Positions 45,865 through 51,292 of a DNA stretch of 51,292 bases are shown one piece after another. How positions within the stretch are numbered: position 1 is the first letter of the stretch; every line of letters starts with the position of its first letter. The notes beneath the pieces are model-generated. The model worked only from the letters and a program-made list of their open reading frames with translations. It was not told the origin of the DNA and did not search any database. Source of the DNA: an uncultured Candidatus Poseidoniales archaeon (GTDB taxonomy: Archaea; Thermoplasmatota; Poseidoniia; Poseidoniales; Thalassarchaeaceae); NCBI GenBank assembly GCA_963990035.1, contig CAXDMJ010000006.1:1-51292 (forward strand), read 5' to 3'. The position numbers and the translations under genes were made by a program.

Positions 45865-46044
45865 ATGGGTGGAACAAATAGTGATATATTCTCTGAAATA
45901 TTTGCAGCAATATTTGGTGCTATATTTGACCAATTAGATAAAAAGAACTGGTGGATTAACTGGGTTAAACCAATTTTGTATTATGGTTCAATAATTATTC
46001 CATTCGCTTATTTATTAGGTTGGCAACAAGGATATTTTAACTAA
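45865..46044 (+). CDS. Small hypothetical membrane protein (59 aa)
   Basis: MGGTNSDIFSEIFAAIFGAIFDQLDKKNWWINWVKPILYYGSIIIPFAYLLGWQQGYFN; its stop abuts the convergent gene's stop. Not in the ORF track. Confidence 0.55.
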   Translation: MGGTNSDIFSEIFAAIFGAIFDQLDKKNWWINWVKPILYYGSIIIPFAYLLGWQQGYFN

Positions 46045-46045
46045 C

Positions 46046-47200
46046 CTACATTGTAAATAAGAAATAATAAGAAATAATTAATGCGGGAATTGCACTGTAT
46101 AATGTAGCAATTATAGCCATTTTTGGCGTTAAAGCGATAGCAGGGAACAAAGCATCACCATCATTTGATATAGCATTTCCAATTAATGCAGCAAAGGGAA
46201 TTATTCCATTAAGATACAAGGTTGTAACTAATATTTGAGGCCCGCAACCAGGAATAAATCCAATTAATATAGCTAATAATGGAATAAATATCAATGCTGA
46301 CTCTGACAATACAGCTAAATCAAGACCCAAAAATGAATTAGCATATTCATAGGCTAAATAAGCAGAAATAACCCATGCAGTGACAAAAGAGGATTCTTCA
46401 GTTGAACGTGTAAATGGATGATCACTACCAACTGTTACCGCATTAACCGGTGATGAGGCCCAAATAATAACTGAAAGAATCGCCCCAGTTAGACCAATCA
46501 ATAGCACTGGATCACCTAAGGCATAGATATCTACTTGCATGAGTTGCATTGTACCGATTACTAGACCTGGAATCGCAATTACCATGTAGATTTTATCTCT
46601 AATCCGAAGCTTACCAATTTCTTTCAATTCGAGACTCTGCACCTCAGTATTGTAAAGTTCCCCCCGATGGAATCTATCCACTAACCATCCACAAACTACA
46701 GCTGCAAAGAAAGAAATTAGTATTACCTTGACATAAGTGGCAGGCGCTTTAGCTAATAGAAGGAAAGCTGCATCTCCCATAGTGCTAATCAATGCTGCAA
46801 CCATTGCTCCTAATGTGATATTACCTCGAGCAAATGCAGTGATTGCAACTACTGCACCACCGCAACCAGGGAGTGCGCCCAATAAACTCGCAGTAGGTAC
46901 TTGCCAAACTCCACCTCTTTCCATGAGAGCACCAACATCAATTTTAAGAAAATGCTCTAAACCAAAGAAAAATAATAATGTTGCTGCTACAAAAACTGTG
47001 ACCTGAGTATATGCATCAAATATAGAAAGACGAGTGATTTCACCTAACTCACCGGGATATATAATTGCGATAATTAAAAGTCCTACAGCAATAACTCTGC
47101 GATATCTTTTAGTTAACAAATCAACTAATTCATTAGAACTACCATCAGCACCAGATGGTTTATTAGAATTGGGAATATTAAACAAATTATCAGTCCTCAA
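46046..47200 (-). CDS. Putative manganese transporter (DUF2899-like)
   Basis: Duplicated PGCG motifs (LPGCGG, IPGCGPQ) with MGDAAF and NDGDALFP; downstream of a DtxR-family gene. Confidence 0.8.
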   Translation of the reverse strand: MRTDNLFNIPNSNKPSGADGSSNELVDLLTKRYRRVIAVGLLIIAIIYPGELGEITRLSIFDAYTQVTVFVAATLLFFFGLEHFLKIDVGALMERGGVWQVPTASLLGALPGCGGAVVAITAFARGNITLGAMVAALISTMGDAAFLLLAKAPATYVKVILISFFAAVVCGWLVDRFHRGELYNTEVQSLELKEIGKLRIRDKIYMVIAIPGLVIGTMQLMQVDIYALGDPVLLIGLTGAILSVIIWASSPVNAVTVGSDHPFTRSTEESSFVTAWVISAYLAYEYANSFLGLDLAVLSESALIFIPLLAILIGFIPGCGPQILVTTLYLNGIIPFAALIGNAISNDGDALFPAIALTPKMAIIATLYSAIPALIISYYFLFTM

Positions 47201-47840
47201 AAGATATTTTTACTAGACTAGCTATAGAGGAAGATATTCTTATTTTCCTATTATTAATACTAACATTGATTCCACCATCGAAATCATCTCTTGAGAGGAT
47301 TTTTAGTTGAATACCAGGATGAATGCCATTTTTCTCCAACCATGAAAGAACATTGGAATCATCATCTGGAACCTGCATTACAGTCAAAGACATATTCAAA
47401 GGTGAATCCGAAAGAGGTAAGTCTGTCTCATTGTATAATTCACCATTAGGCCCTGGAATTGGATGCCCATGTGGATCACGTTTAGGATTACCAAGATAAT
47501 CTGCTATCGCATTCTCAAGATTCTTAGAAAGTGCATGTTCAAGCTTCTCAGCTTCATCATGTAATTGCTCACGACCGAGTCCCAACGTCTGAGACAAAAA
47601 TGTCTCTAATAATCGATGTCTCCGTACTACTGATAGAGCCTCTAATTCTCCTTTTTTAGTTAAAGATGCACCTCTGTAAGGTATATGGTCTACTAATCCT
47701 CTTTCAGTCAGTCTTTGTATCATTTTCGTTGCTGATGCGGGAGTAACATCTAGGTTATCAGCAAGTTCCTGTGTACCTACATTTTTAGGACCAAGTTTCC
47801 AAAGAGACTTCAGATAGTCCTCGATTGCGACTGAGTACAC
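47190..47840 (-). CDS. DtxR/MntR-family metal-dependent repressor with FeoA-like C-terminal domain
   Basis: EDYLK, HTH, RRHRLLETFL, EAEKLEH and DPHGHPIP motifs. Confidence 0.93.
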   Translation of the reverse strand: MYSVAIEDYLKSLWKLGPKNVGTQELADNLDVTPASATKMIQRLTERGLVDHIPYRGASLTKKGELEALSVVRRHRLLETFLSQTLGLGREQLHDEAEKLEHALSKNLENAIADYLGNPKRDPHGHPIPGPNGELYNETDLPLSDSPLNMSLTVMQVPDDDSNVLSWLEKNGIHPGIQLKILSRDDFDGGINVSINNRKIRISSSIASLVKISFED

Positions 47841-47848
47841 ATGCTTGG

Positions 47849-47886
47849 TTTAGCCATGACTAATATAAAGTTTAGCCAAGGCTAAA
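47849..47886. promoter_or_regulatory. Tandem DtxR/MntR-type operators flanking a TATA box
   Basis: TTTAGCC-AA-GGCTAAA palindrome (47871-47886) and a degenerate copy TTTAGCC-AT-GACTAAT (47849-47864); minus-strand TTTATATTA lies between them. Confidence 0.75.
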
Positions 47887-47915
47887 TTCAAATTAAAAAT
47901 TATCTAATGACAATC

Positions 47916-49499
47916 CTAATTACCCTTACTCAAATTAGCATTACTTTCTTTGAATCGTATTAGATTTTCTTTTCGACTTTCTTTTCTGTTCACTATTGGA
48001 TTAGGATAGTCTTGACCTATAATACAGTTTGAACTTCTTTGTATTTCTAAGGAAGCCAGATGAGGTTCAAAGATATACTTTGAAGGAAAAGAAATTAATT
48101 CAGGCACCCAATAACGTATGAAATCTGCATCTACAGTTTCAGCATTAAGGCTGGATTTAGAATCAGGACATGGATTATAAACGCGATAATAGGGCATGGA
48201 AAAAGGAGCCACTCCAGCTAGCCAAAGCCAATTACCATTATTTAGTGCCCAATCAGAATCAATTAACTTTCTATCAAAAATATCTCTACCTATTTTCCAA
48301 TTCTGCCAAAGTTGTCCCCTAGTTAAGAAACAAGAAACTGCATGTCTGCCTAGGTGGTGCATCCATCCCGTAGATTCGAGTTGTCGCATCATTGCATCGA
48401 TGTAAGGGAAGCCAGTCATCCCTAATTCCCATGCTGTAATTTTATCAATATCATATTCTCCCCAATCTATTGGTTTACAGTTAGAATTATTTTGGTCATC
48501 ATCCCAGTTTTCGACAGATCTTGAAAGAAGATAGAACATTTCTCTGAACATAAGTTGCCCAAGTAGTGACTCTGGTGGCTTTGTATGGCTGGAATTGAAA
48601 TTAGCCTTTCGACATTCATTCCATAACAGCCTAACGGAAAGACATCCGTTGCTAATATATGGTGAAAGACCTGTAGTACTAGGCTCTAAAGGATTACCTT
48701 GCTCATTTGTAGAAACTGAGTGTGGCTTACTAAAATCATTAACAAAATTATGCGAATCAGAAACCTTCCTCTTCAGTCTAACCAGAGCTTCATTTTCGCC
48801 ACCTAAGAAATAATGCGTACCTGTTTCTAAATTCGAATCTATTTTCATTGCTTCTTGCTGTAAATCAGTAAAAGGAATATAATATTTCGACAAAATATCG
48901 TTGTTTGCTAAAGATTGCATCACATTAATATTAGGTTTAATCTGCTTTGGAGGAGCAAGTGATTCTCCAACAAGGTATCCATCTGGGTCTGTCTCAAGAT
49001 TATTTGCGAATATCTTATCAATGTCCTTCAATGATTTTGGATTAATAAAATCCTCAGATCGTATCACTTTTTCAATGTCCAGGATAGTGCTAACTGCGGG
49101 GAATACCTTTGTTTGAATACTTGAATCAGATAAGAGAAGTTGTATTTCATCCATACTCTTGAGACCCTCGGGTTCTGAGCAAAAATCACATAATAACCAT
49201 GTTATTTCTGTATCCAACATTTCGAATATTGATTTAAAAATCTCTACAGCATTACCAGAAAAAATAAGAATTCCAGATTGCAATTTTTCTTCTAAATTCC
49301 GATTTAAGCCTAATATCGACTCATAAAGGAACTTTTTCCTGTTAACTGTCGGACTATGGTTACTTTGATTGACCCATTTATCATCTAATATGTAGATTGG
49401 AATAATTGTATCGATTCCATCACAATCGGACGCCCAACTCAGTACAGGGTTATCATGCAGCCTCAGTATATTCCGAAACCAAACAATAGCCGTACTCAT
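47916..49499 (-). CDS. Cryptochrome/photolyase, (6-4) photolyase/animal-cryptochrome type
   Basis: WFR..LRLHDNP, GGE..AL, TT.LSPY...GCLS.R, TGFP.IDA.MRQL, GWMHHL.RHAV.CFLTRG.LW..W and D.DWALN.GNWLWL motifs. Confidence 0.88.
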   Translation of the reverse strand: MSTAIVWFRNILRLHDNPVLSWASDCDGIDTIIPIYILDDKWVNQSNHSPTVNRKKFLYESILGLNRNLEEKLQSGILIFSGNAVEIFKSIFEMLDTEITWLLCDFCSEPEGLKSMDEIQLLLSDSSIQTKVFPAVSTILDIEKVIRSEDFINPKSLKDIDKIFANNLETDPDGYLVGESLAPPKQIKPNINVMQSLANNDILSKYYIPFTDLQQEAMKIDSNLETGTHYFLGGENEALVRLKRKVSDSHNFVNDFSKPHSVSTNEQGNPLEPSTTGLSPYISNGCLSVRLLWNECRKANFNSSHTKPPESLLGQLMFREMFYLLSRSVENWDDDQNNSNCKPIDWGEYDIDKITAWELGMTGFPYIDAMMRQLESTGWMHHLGRHAVSCFLTRGQLWQNWKIGRDIFDRKLIDSDWALNNGNWLWLAGVAPFSMPYYRVYNPCPDSKSSLNAETVDADFIRYWVPELISFPSKYIFEPHLASLEIQRSSNCIIGQDYPNPIVNRKESRKENLIRFKESNANLSKGN

Positions 49500-49544
49500 G
49501 TATTAAATCCATTTCCACATGGCTTTTAATATTCTGTATTAAAA

Positions 49545-50672
49545 TTAATGGCCATGTTCAATCAAACCAGAAATATCCATAGCAAATAATATCAAAGTCA
49601 GTATTATTGCACCTAATAAGACATTAAGCATTGCTTTCTTACCTGTTTCCGGATTATGGATATCAGGAAGAGTATCTACTGTTGCGACATAAAGGAAGGT
49701 ACCTGCAGAGAATAGCATAGTCAAACCGATAATATGAGTTTCTAAATCTTCAAGAGCATAGAATGCAAGTAGAATCATTACAGGAGTAGCTAGTGAAAAT
49801 ATCAATACGTCACGAATAGAATCATTACGATATTCTCTCTCATGCATAGAAAATACTCCAAGACTGAAAGCAGCAGGACCCTTATGTATCAATACTGCAA
49901 GAGCTACAGCAGCAGTCACAGTTACACTGCCAGATGCTGCTGCTGCCCCAATCGCAATACCATCAGTTGCCGCGTGAAGCGTTAGTCCGAATAGTAAAAG
50001 CCATCCCGATGAACTATGATGTATATGTCCATGATTATGCTCAAGGTCATGATCATGATGCTCTTCATGAACTGCATGCCCTATACCAGACCCTTCAAGG
50101 ATAAGCATGAGCAAGAAACCACCAAGTATTGCTCCCCCTAATAGTAAGCCACTAGTATGTTCATCTTCTTCCTCATGAATTTCATCATGAGAATGGCTGG
50201 TGATTAATTCTTCAATTTCTTCCAATCCTACTGTGGCATTAATTTCACCATCTTCTACTTCTTCTACTACGTGAAGTACTGATTCCGAGAGTAATTCATC
50301 AGTAAGATCTTCATCACTATGAGTGGATTCCTCTTCAGAATGTGCATCATGACCTCCAGCTAATTCTTCGATTTCTTCTATCGCCTGAGATGCATTAATA
50401 TCTCCATGATCGACTTCTAACATCACCAGAGCTATGGAACCGGCTAATCCATCTTCATCGCCATGAGAATCGTGTTCATCATTAGTAGCAAGTTCGAAAC
50501 CTTCTGGAATCACAACTAACGCTGCAGATGCAAGGATTATCCCCGCTGCGATTCCTGTCATTATCTTTAATTTGTTTGCATCTTCCTTTATTTTTGATAA
50601 AACCGGTATTAAACCACAGATAAGAGCGACCATTAAAGTTAGTGCAACATACATTAGCGGGAGTTCTGCCAT
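49545..50672 (-). CDS. ZIP-family metal transporter with a large His/Glu-rich insert
   Basis: IPEG, HAATDGIAIG, HKGPAAF and AGTFLYVA..D.LP motifs; His-rich loops. Confidence 0.9.
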   Translation of the reverse strand: MAELPLMYVALTLMVALICGLIPVLSKIKEDANKLKIMTGIAAGIILASAALVVIPEGFELATNDEHDSHGDEDGLAGSIALVMLEVDHGDINASQAIEEIEELAGGHDAHSEEESTHSDEDLTDELLSESVLHVVEEVEDGEINATVGLEEIEELITSHSHDEIHEEEDEHTSGLLLGGAILGGFLLMLILEGSGIGHAVHEEHHDHDLEHNHGHIHHSSSGWLLLFGLTLHAATDGIAIGAAAASGSVTVTAAVALAVLIHKGPAAFSLGVFSMHEREYRNDSIRDVLIFSLATPVMILLAFYALEDLETHIIGLTMLFSAGTFLYVATVDTLPDIHNPETGKKAMLNVLLGAIILTLILFAMDISGLIEHGH

Positions 50673-50711
50673 ACCCTTCCGGTAATTAATAAGTATTTAA
50701 GAAATGTTATT

Positions 50712-50728
50712 AATTGTTACTAACAATT
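50712..50728. promoter_or_regulatory. Candidate operator between the divergent ZIP and NikR-like genes
   Basis: Perfect inverted repeat AATTGTTA-C-TAACAATT. Confidence 0.5.
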
Positions 50729-50765
50729 CAACAAATATTATTAATTCGATGACAATGCGAGTATC

Positions 50766-51191
50766 ATGAGTCGAATACTCTCATTTAGTACTGACAAACA
50801 ATTCGCCGAGCAATTAGAAGATCTAGTGAAGAAAAGCGGGTATAATAATCGTAGTATGTTTCTCAGAGACGCCAGTATTCATTTTTGTGATGCAATGACT
50901 AGGGGAGATATATATTCAATGGTTGATACAATTGAAGTTGAGGGGACAATGGTTATCTATTACCAGCATAGTGTTGAAAATAAACTTCTGGAATTAAGGC
51001 ATTCTCATTCAATCGAAATTTCATCTTACAGCCATAATTGCTTAGTTTCGAGTCATACTTGCGTAGATACTATGCAAATTAAAGGAACAGCATTATTAAT
51101 TCGTGAAGCGATACAAAAATTGCAAAATACAAATGATATAGATAGGGTTGAATTTATTGCAGCACCAGTAAGAGAAGAAGGTTGTTGCTAA
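50766..51191 (+). CDS. NikR-like regulator (RHH + ACT-like metal-binding domain)
   Basis: ILSFS...GYNNRS.FLRDA RHH domain; GT..IYYQH, H.C....HTC and KG pattern; C-terminal CC. Confidence 0.8.
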   Translation: MSRILSFSTDKQFAEQLEDLVKKSGYNNRSMFLRDASIHFCDAMTRGDIYSMVDTIEVEGTMVIYYQHSVENKLLELRHSHSIEISSYSHNCLVSSHTCVDTMQIKGTALLIREAIQKLQNTNDIDRVEFIAAPVREEGCC

Positions 51192-51202
51192 AATTACTCA
51201 CT

Positions 51203-51292
51203 TCACTCTTCCATATATTTTGCAATGATTTCTGAAAGTTTAATTGAACCGAAATTATGACTGTCCTCACTTGCATTAGGGTCAGGATTATC
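51203..51292 (-). CDS. 3' end of a CDS truncated by the window edge, product unknown
   Basis: Open frame DNPDPNASEDSHNFGSIKLSEIIAKYMEE then TGA. Confidence 0.5.
   Translation of the reverse strand, partial: DNPDPNASEDSHNFGSIKLSEIIAKYMEE

Follow-up and report, generated by a model that had tools for sequence, protein, structure and literature searches.

The analyses presented here indicated that a planktonic marine archaeon carries an intact gene of the eukaryotic (6-4) photolyase/animal-like cryptochrome family. The gene was found in a 51,292-nucleotide stretch of DNA, here called the window, from a Marine Group IIb (Thalassarchaeaceae) genome, and its product was a Phe-pocket, loop-insert variant of the family in an unusual host. 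The reading that we favor, and in which we place good confidence, is that the predicted protein repairs (6-4) photoproducts under blue light, that its gene goes back to a single acquisition from a dinoflagellate-related eukaryote, and that in Poseidoniia, this gene and that of the prokaryotic Fe-S (6-4) photolyase are interchangeable, the one substituting for the other.

Two classes of (6-4) photolyases are usually distinguished, one eukaryotic and the other prokaryotic and of the Fe-S type, and the Gloeobacter enzyme is the exception; to our knowledge, transfers from eukaryotes to archaea have rarely been documented. We lean modestly toward a wider picture in which planktonic marine archaea have one slot for (6-4) repair. 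This slot would be filled either by the bacterial Fe-S type or by an iron-free eukaryotic type, which would have been captured once from a dinoflagellate/Syndiniales source, spread via MGIIa, MGIIb, MGIII, and marine Opitutales, been swapped by recombination, and still be moving between species. If this is true, a eukaryote-to-prokaryote transfer swept a major class of ocean archaea, and the class is a natural experiment that bears on what is gained from the Fe-S type and not from the eukaryotic type.

Family membership and active-site residues

The first-pass annotation had placed the predicted protein in the (6-4) photolyase/animal cryptochrome clade, and not among the class I CPD photolyases or the Fe-S prokaryotic (6-4) enzymes, and this placement was borne out. 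CraCRY and the Drosophila and Arabidopsis (6-4) photolyases were matched in the PDB with 293-294 bits, compared to no more than 133 bits for class I/III photolyases, DASH proteins, and plant cryptochromes, and the trees described below agreed. Scores against the NCBIfam class I, DASH, 8-HDF, and plant cryptochrome models were far under their cut-offs. In the case of the class I/III CPD photolyases, the protein had HHLGRH instead of HNRxRM and scored 166 bits against a cut-off of 506. In the case of CRY-DASH, the TIGR02765 score was 157 bits against a cut-off of 317, and His and Trp occupied two substrate positions for which Table 1 of PMC7560933 gives Gln and Tyr in DASH proteins. As for the Fe-S class (FeS-BCP), PF04244 was absent from the protein and from the host genome, and PhrB and CryB were absent among the 45 PDB matches. 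The protein also differed from the animal signaling cryptochromes, which have His at the site of the DNA-binding Arg or Cys at N5 and carry a C-terminal extension, as R439 and N420 were kept and there was no tail. The features that placed it with the eukaryotic (6-4) photolyases and animal-like cryptochromes were the two-domain homology region, the catalytic triad, the electron-transfer tetrad with the flavin-N5 Asn, and the position in the trees. The features are collected in Table 1.

Table 1. Positions of the photolyase gene, its domains and key residues, and the neighboring genes in the window
Feature	Position	Strand	Remarks
Eukaryote-type (6-4) photolyase gene	47916..49499	-	527 aa, ATG start, no internal stops
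N-terminal alpha/beta (antenna) domain, residues 4-148	49056..49490	-	Pfam PF00875 DNA_photolyase
FAD-binding catalytic domain, residues 313-517	47949..48563	-	PF03441 FAD_binding_7
QLMFREM: Q315 (Dm Q299, CraCRY Q291), F318 at Dm W302	48537..48557	-	From alignment; Q and F in 120/120 listed homologs
W346, third electron-transfer Trp (CraCRY W322)	48462..48464	-	120/120 listed homologs
HHLGRH: His1 H382 (Dm H365), His2 H386 (Dm H369)	48342..48359	-	Both His in 120/120 listed homologs; roles from sections of PMC6125616
LWQNW: W398, fourth aromatic (CraCRY Y373); W401, second Trp (CraCRY W376)	48297..48311	-	Both in 120/120 listed homologs
DWALNNGNWLWL: flavin-N5 Asn N420 (CraCRY N395), proximal Trp W424 (CraCRY W399), W426 (Dm W409)	48219..48254	-	120/120 listed homologs
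Clade-specific loop, residues 428-452, with R439 (Dm R421, Xl R410) and triad Tyr Y441 (Dm Y423)	48144..48218	-	From alignments
ZIP zinc transporter	49545..50672	-	45 bp upstream of photolyase, same strand; recently shared block, not a conserved partner
NikR-like regulator	50766..51191	+	Divergent from zip; recently shared block
DtxR/MntR-type metal repressor	47190..47840	-	Directly downstream of photolyase; recently shared block
ArsP_2 putative metal exporter	46046..47200	-	Edge of recently shared block

The cluster representative P0001 served as the query in places, and S261T is the only difference between it and the window protein. On P0001, the motifs picked out in the first-pass annotation were located at residues 378-401, 416-427, 315-321 (QLMFREM), and 343-346 (PIDW). 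An AlphaFold model of the photolyase (pLDDT of 82.5, pTM of 0.88) matched CraCRY, Dm(6-4), and mouse CRY1 with TM scores of about 0.8. The fold was shared with CraCRY (PDB 6fn0, 5zm0), the Drosophila enzyme (3cvu, 7ayv), and Arabidopsis UVR3 (3fy4), as were the His-His-Tyr triad, the aromatic tetrad, the N5 Asn, and the lesion-binding Gln, Lys, and Arg. Unlike these enzymes, the archaeal protein has Phe at the position of Dm W302, a Gly in HHLGRH, and an insertion of about five residues at 428-452; it has also lost most of the 8-HDF contacts, has no C-terminal extension, and has an archaeal host. The match to CraCRY stopped at residue 516 (CraCRY residue 486) and the protein ends at residue 527, so no C-terminal cryptochrome extension is present.

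Residues were numbered via alignments to 6fn0 and 7ayv, their roles were taken from sections of PMC6125616 and PMC6061865, and their conservation was checked in the 120 homologs listed out of 1126 matches. As first proposed, the two catalytic His residues (H382 and H386) and a four-Trp chain (W424, W401, W346, and W398) were present. The triad, the tetrad, N420, K258, Q315, and R439 were invariant in 120 of 120 listed homologs. An Asn at flavin N5 is described as a mark of repair-competent members (in sections of PMC6125616), and animal cryptochromes are described as carrying His instead of Arg at the R439 position (in sections of PMC6061865).

Among the lesion-pocket residues, Q315, K258, R439, and W426 were kept, and the Trp at Dm 302 was Phe. 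The Trp-to-Phe change noticed in the first-pass annotation was therefore real, with F318 standing for Dm W302, which we take to line the lesion pocket. It was no archaeal novelty, however, because Phe was found in 12 of 12 dinoflagellate-side proteins and 12 of 12 sister-clade proteins checked. The loop at residues 428-452 contained an insertion of about five residues that was common to the dinoflagellate/pelagophyte paralogs, and its predicted structure was poor (pLDDT of <50 at residues 430-445). All of the characterized enzymes differ from the photolyase in this loop, and the pocket Trp is replaced by F318; these differences count against the favored reading.

The putative mechanism is modeled on CraCRY, Dm64, and Xl64. 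FAD would be photoreduced to FADH- through W424, W401, W346, and W398, and N420 would permit the full reduction of FAD. The lesion would flip into a pocket formed by Q315, F318, W426, K258, and R439, and excited FADH- would give an electron to it. H382, H386, and Y441 would then catalyze a group transfer by which both pyrimidines are restored. An 8-HDF antenna is unlikely for this photolyase because four of the six mapped contacts were lost (CraCRY D105, R113, D114, and K258 correspond to C107, S115, M116, and S283) and because CofG (F0 synthase) was not found above the cut-off in the host genome, which is 85% complete. The two contacts that were kept, CraCRY R55 and E107, correspond to R54 and E109; the roles of the contact residues in CraCRY are given in section 18 of PMC6125616.

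The first-pass annotation had offered a repair enzyme or a blue-light sensor. Repair was much better supported: sensing was at odds with the missing C-terminal extension, with an Arg in place of the animal cryptochrome His, and with the exclusion of the Fe-S type and the sharing of its slots. It seems rather unlikely that the protein is bifunctional, as CraCRY or diatom CPF1 are, and combines (6-4) repair with blue-light sensing for gene expression. In favor of such a protein, the full Trp tetrad was invariant in the 120 listed homologs, and the host genome has a rhodopsin; sections of PMC6125616 also indicate that an extended chain may accompany signaling or bifunctionality, but that the tetrad serves repair, too. 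Against it, no conserved regulatory neighbor was found across the loci examined, and a C-terminal extension was absent. A pure photoreceptor, or an enzyme with changed specificity (e.g., for single-stranded or CPD substrates) in which the Phe pocket and the loop removed or shifted (6-4) repair, is very unlikely. The W302-to-Phe replacement, the loop insertion, and an Ala-Gly...Pro-Tyr segment that resembled class I photolyases in the alignment would suit such a protein, but the protein still has His1, His2, and the Tyr, along with the N5 Asn and an Arg of the photolyase type, whereas in the vertebrate cryptochrome-like rows, His takes the place of this Arg and Cys that of the Tyr.

Distribution and alternation with the Fe-S (6-4) photolyase

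In a survey of archaeal genomes for homologs, the eukaryote-type clade was found in 65 of 400 Poseidoniia genomes, a figure that was counted by hand among the matches listed and that leaves aside 47 weak matches; four of the 65 were N-terminal or partial fragments. The carriers were 40 of 165 genomes of Thalassarchaeaceae, 17 of 189 of the other large Poseidoniales family, which we infer to be MGIIa, 8 of 43 of a family outside the order, and 0 of 3 of two small families. The family outside the order is apparently MGIII, judging from its grouping with a named MGIII protein. In 400 genomes sampled across Thermoplasmatota, those outside the class yielded no clade member and no more than distant matches.

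Bacterial proteins also belonged to the prokaryotic clade. Proteins labeled Opitutales, Opitutae, or Verrucomicrobia, in three 90% clusters whose assignment follows the NCBI names of MAG proteins, sat in one 20-row subgroup, and the Opitutales-labeled proteins retained every key residue. A further subgroup without a host label (P0054, P0057, P0060, P0061, P0063, P0066, P0080, P0082, P0106, and P0413) stood apart from the archaeal and Opitutales subgroups and is possibly another marine bacterial lineage. In a genome-wide scan across all prokaryotic species that relied on single-protein patterns, only four loci were recovered, which is no measure of the bacterial range. Viral carriage was considered and rejected, as there was no match in IMG/VR by protein or by alignment. 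Searches of phage and plasmid collections returned distant class I-like matches only, the Opitutales protein matched nothing in plasmids at 1e-60, and an ESM Atlas search returned nothing beyond the family.

PF04244, the family of the Fe-S-type prokaryotic (6-4) photolyases, was found in 133 of the same 400 Poseidoniia genomes, and the one PF04244 protein that was checked was an FeS-BCP (PhrB 4dja, 254 bits). The two types were found together in 0 of 400 genomes, compared to 21.6 expected overall and 12.9 expected with stratification by genus; the significance of this difference is overstated, since the MAGs were 54-98% complete and mutually related. Relatedness and incompleteness inflate the significance of the exclusion, but not its repetition across genera. 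Ten genera held both types, in different genomes (11 and 34 of 59 in genus g14). When 15 PF04244 carriers with weak or unlisted matches were rechecked by clade alignment, they scored no more than 90 bits, and PF04244 was not detected, even at an E value of 1, in four eukaryote-type carriers and the L001 genome. As a positive control for co-occurrence, another gene of the photolyase family, with a weaker score, was seen in at least 33 of the 65 carriers. Part of the exclusion could also come from a habitat split.

The balance between the types differed by family. Eukaryotic and Fe-S types were found in 40 versus 12 of 165 Thalassarchaeaceae genomes, 8 versus 0 of 43 genomes of the MGIII family, and 17 versus 121 of 189 genomes of the other Poseidoniales family. 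The eukaryotic class thus predominates in Thalassarchaeaceae and the MGIII family and is outnumbered in the other Poseidoniales family. Saving iron would be an attractive reason for the swap, but it was not supported by an Fe/Mn superoxide dismutase proxy, which was found by hand count in 25 of 65 eukaryote-type carriers versus 6 of 133 Fe-S carriers and followed genus. The Fe/Mn superoxide dismutase was nearly absent in family f2 (4/189) and patchy by genus in f1 (71/165), a pattern that suggests a genus-level exchange with the nickel enzyme.

We compared the flanks of 48 loci from ten genera, with the Fe-S row from G036 left out, and found that the two genes adjoined the same flanking genes in three of the ten genera. 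In g14, a Tudor/EF-hand gene and a flavin oxidoreductase gene flanked both the Fe-S gene (G179, G242, G112) and, in inverted orientation, the eukaryotic gene (G058, G297). In g12, five upstream genes were common to G334 and G305, which carry the two types, and in g9 an adjacent fasciclin gene was common to G236 and G310, which likewise carry the two types. Shared genes were nearby, but not adjacent, in g13, g15, g23, and a second g14 pair, and no shared flank was found in g5, g6, g16, and g17 (4 of the 10 genera examined). Because the two genes were never co-resident and shared slots, it is likely that they replace each other in place, presumably by recombination, and the same observations support a (6-4) repair function.

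This alternation and in-place exchange, as read from the genomes, is the best available evidence for the predicted function of the photolyase. It also bears on the two rival readings of function, since exchangeability with FeS-BCP requires repair only, which argues against a bifunctional protein, and since other genes of the photolyase family readily occur in the same genomes as this one, with only the (6-4) Fe-S type excluded, which argues against changed specificity. With (6-4) repair as the favored reading, the strict either/or pattern amounts to a test of function without culture. Close relatives that differ only in enzyme class bear on why two convergent (6-4) enzymes persist and on the purpose of the unexplained Fe-S cluster. 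FeS-BCP enzymes (Agrobacterium PhrB, Rhodobacter CryB) act on the same lesion but form a separate class with a 4Fe-4S cluster, the mutually exclusive alternative in Poseidoniia, and PMC8476157 inferred that (6-4) repair was gained independently by the FeS-BCP and eukaryotic classes.

The pattern resembles a replacement in place that was proposed for proteorhodopsin types in Poseidoniales, for which section 25 of PMC6461757 reports one copy per genome and neighborhoods that are conserved whatever the type. The proteorhodopsin swap involves two clades of one family, whereas the photolyase swap involves two classes, one of likely eukaryotic origin. The presence of the (6-4) class in archaea is already known: in sections of PMC9498864, (6-4) photolyases are listed for 33% of archaea (n = 9) and 15% of bacteria (n = 20), and one 'Euryarchaeota archaeon' is named as having both a CPD III enzyme and a (6-4) enzyme. 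This clade may already have been named in the supplement of PMC9498864 or in the work of Haro-Moreno and colleagues on MGIII. In sections of PMC6461757 and PMC10480650, the MGII photolyases are phrB with a patchy history of transfer; patchy 'phrB' is the only photolyase mentioned in those of PMC6461757, and those of PMC10480650 place Verrucomicrobia among the possible bacterial donors of MGII phrB. We found no paper that deals with the mutual exclusion, with the sharing of slots, with a dinoflagellate origin, or with the members labeled Opitutales, judging mostly from titles and the openings of abstracts and with few subscription papers included. Two points appear to be new: that the gene strictly alternates with that of the Fe-S (6-4) photolyase and is exchanged with it in place, and that the clade reaches into marine Verrucomicrobia.

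Phylogenetic origin

In our trees, the protein branched inside the (6-4) family and not with the CPD class I/III photolyases, which were the only outgroup in trees that held no DASH or Gloeobacter sequences; the relatives were gathered by similarity, and the rows of the smaller trees were chosen by hand. The nearest nonprokaryotic relatives were protists, namely, Amoebophrya, Crypthecodinium, Durusdinium, and Oxyrrhis, with a second paralog in Symbiodiniaceae, Polarella, and pelagophytes, and these relatives carry the same Phe and loop insertion. The dinoflagellate (6-4) paralogs, which have database names only, were the nearest named relatives (best identity, 47%); they differ from the archaeal protein in having eukaryotic hosts and in the fourth aromatic residue, which is Tyr in 8 of 12. 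We found no literature in which these paralogs are characterized. The Phe-pocket, loop-insert subfamily is uncharacterized on the dinoflagellate side too, and the intronless archaeal member is easy to express.

The prokaryotic clade was nested within the first dinoflagellate paralog in a FastTree tree (100 rows), a quick C20 tree (56 rows), and an LG+G4 tree (42 rows). In the LG+G4 tree, support (SH-aLRT/UFBoot values taken from the unrooted tree) was 100/100 for the prokaryotic clade, 96.6/98 for this clade plus its sister group, 97/98 with Amoebophrya added, and 96.6/97 for the joining with Crypthecodinium, Durusdinium, and Oxyrrhis. Support for the whole insert-bearing group was weak (49.6/85). 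The archaea formed one branch (90.6/93), and the Opitutales and no-host-label rows fell outside this branch; the first recipient may therefore have been a bacterium.

Sister-group rows without names were taken as eukaryotic in the tree and in the AU test. The sister group is likely eukaryotic, since its one contig with context carried a mitochondrial-type SHMT in three pieces. At L095:109-4228, an intronless sister-group (6-4) photolyase lay beside a split mitochondrial-type SHMT in what looks to be an AT-rich marine eukaryote, which is a candidate for the donor lineage. Taken with the nesting described above, the donor was likely dinoflagellate related.

The first-pass annotation had proposed either horizontal acquisition or a deep prokaryotic sister lineage, and the trees supported the former. 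When the 29 eukaryote-side rows were forced into one clade, the cost was 36 log-likelihood units (p-AU of 0.003 under LG+G4, one model), which rejected the latter. We therefore regard as unlikely the alternative that the clade is an ancient prokaryotic lineage, or that it was the donor to dinoflagellates rather than the recipient. The clade does span MGIIa, MGIIb, MGIII, the Opitutales-labeled proteins, and the group without a host label on a long stem, and the quick mixture-model tree did not resolve the root of the family; against this, several eukaryotic branches were successively paraphyletic to the prokaryotic clade, and no member was found outside Poseidoniia in the sample of 400 Thermoplasmatota genomes. 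The Gloeobacter (6-4) photolyase is likewise a eukaryote-type enzyme in a prokaryote, and a transfer involving green algae is discussed in sections of PMC7560933 and PMC9498864. In those sections, the Gloeobacter enzyme is near algal enzymes and is found in two species, whereas the clade described here was apart from Chlorella and Closterium, in trees without Gloeobacter, and spans a class. Three database proteins (P0219, P0122, and P0139) looked chimeric or frameshifted, and P0219 had a clade-type front and a class I-type FAD domain.

Locus integrity, neighboring genes, and a second photolyase-family gene

The closest genome record was a Ca. Thalassarchaeaceae MAG (L001; 98% protein identity), and in this separate assembly, the 11 genes that run from nikR to fdhF, on either side of the photolyase gene, were all in the order seen in the window. 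Contigs from DNA run X13 were identical to the window over positions 46000-48400 and 48526-51292 and spanned both gene ends; a gap of 125 bases within the gene was not bridged. The gene boundaries thus showed no assembly chimera. An assembly or binning artifact that joined eukaryotic DNA to an archaeal contig is extremely unlikely. The codon fit of the photolyase gene did rank low among 558 long ORFs (2.5th percentile), and its GC3 was 28.5% versus 23.3 ± 3.0%, but the gene was intronless, 65 related genomes carry the clade, and the L001 gene order and X13 contigs stand as described. The slightly atypical codon use fits a mobile gene.

Nucleotide identity between the window and L001 was 95-100% from position 51292 to about 46100, compared to 72-86% below 44900 and 85% on the other flank. 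The difference between the block and its flanks suggests a recent recombination between species of a metal-homeostasis island (nikR-zip-photolyase-mntR-arsP), with mixed binning in one MAG as the alternative. A functional link between the photolyase and the metal genes was rejected, as the neighbors were not conserved beyond the closest relatives. The ZIP transporter, which is divergent from the NikR-like gene, was His-rich. A promoter/terminator scan was at chance level (13 found versus 14.6 expected). In three RNA runs with small word shares, contigs lay on zip, mntR, and arsP only, which says nothing for or against expression of the photolyase. In G133 (L002, L015), a close relative of the gene had frameshifts near its 5' end, which indicates a pseudogene or an assembly error.

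The host genome also carried a second photolyase-family gene (510 aa; L006:691-2223, G000:C3) with a WINFRMR-type motif that was about equally distant from all solved classes. It probably belongs to the DASH-like prokaryote group of PMC8476157, and it is a candidate for CPD repair. No DASH protein above the cut-off was found in 61 genomes. In genus g4, the second gene and the eukaryote-type gene formed a tandem pair. The end of contig C3 and the window end (51238-51292) had an exact overlap of 55 bases, which fell within a 68-bp repeat; this repeat was also found at C3:62104. The 8.8-kb block between the repeats (G000:C3:62104-70962, L098) held the second photolyase-family gene and was missing in L001, and a nickel superoxide dismutase gene was located just before the block. 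The two photolyase genes are thus probably about 11 kb apart in one variable island.
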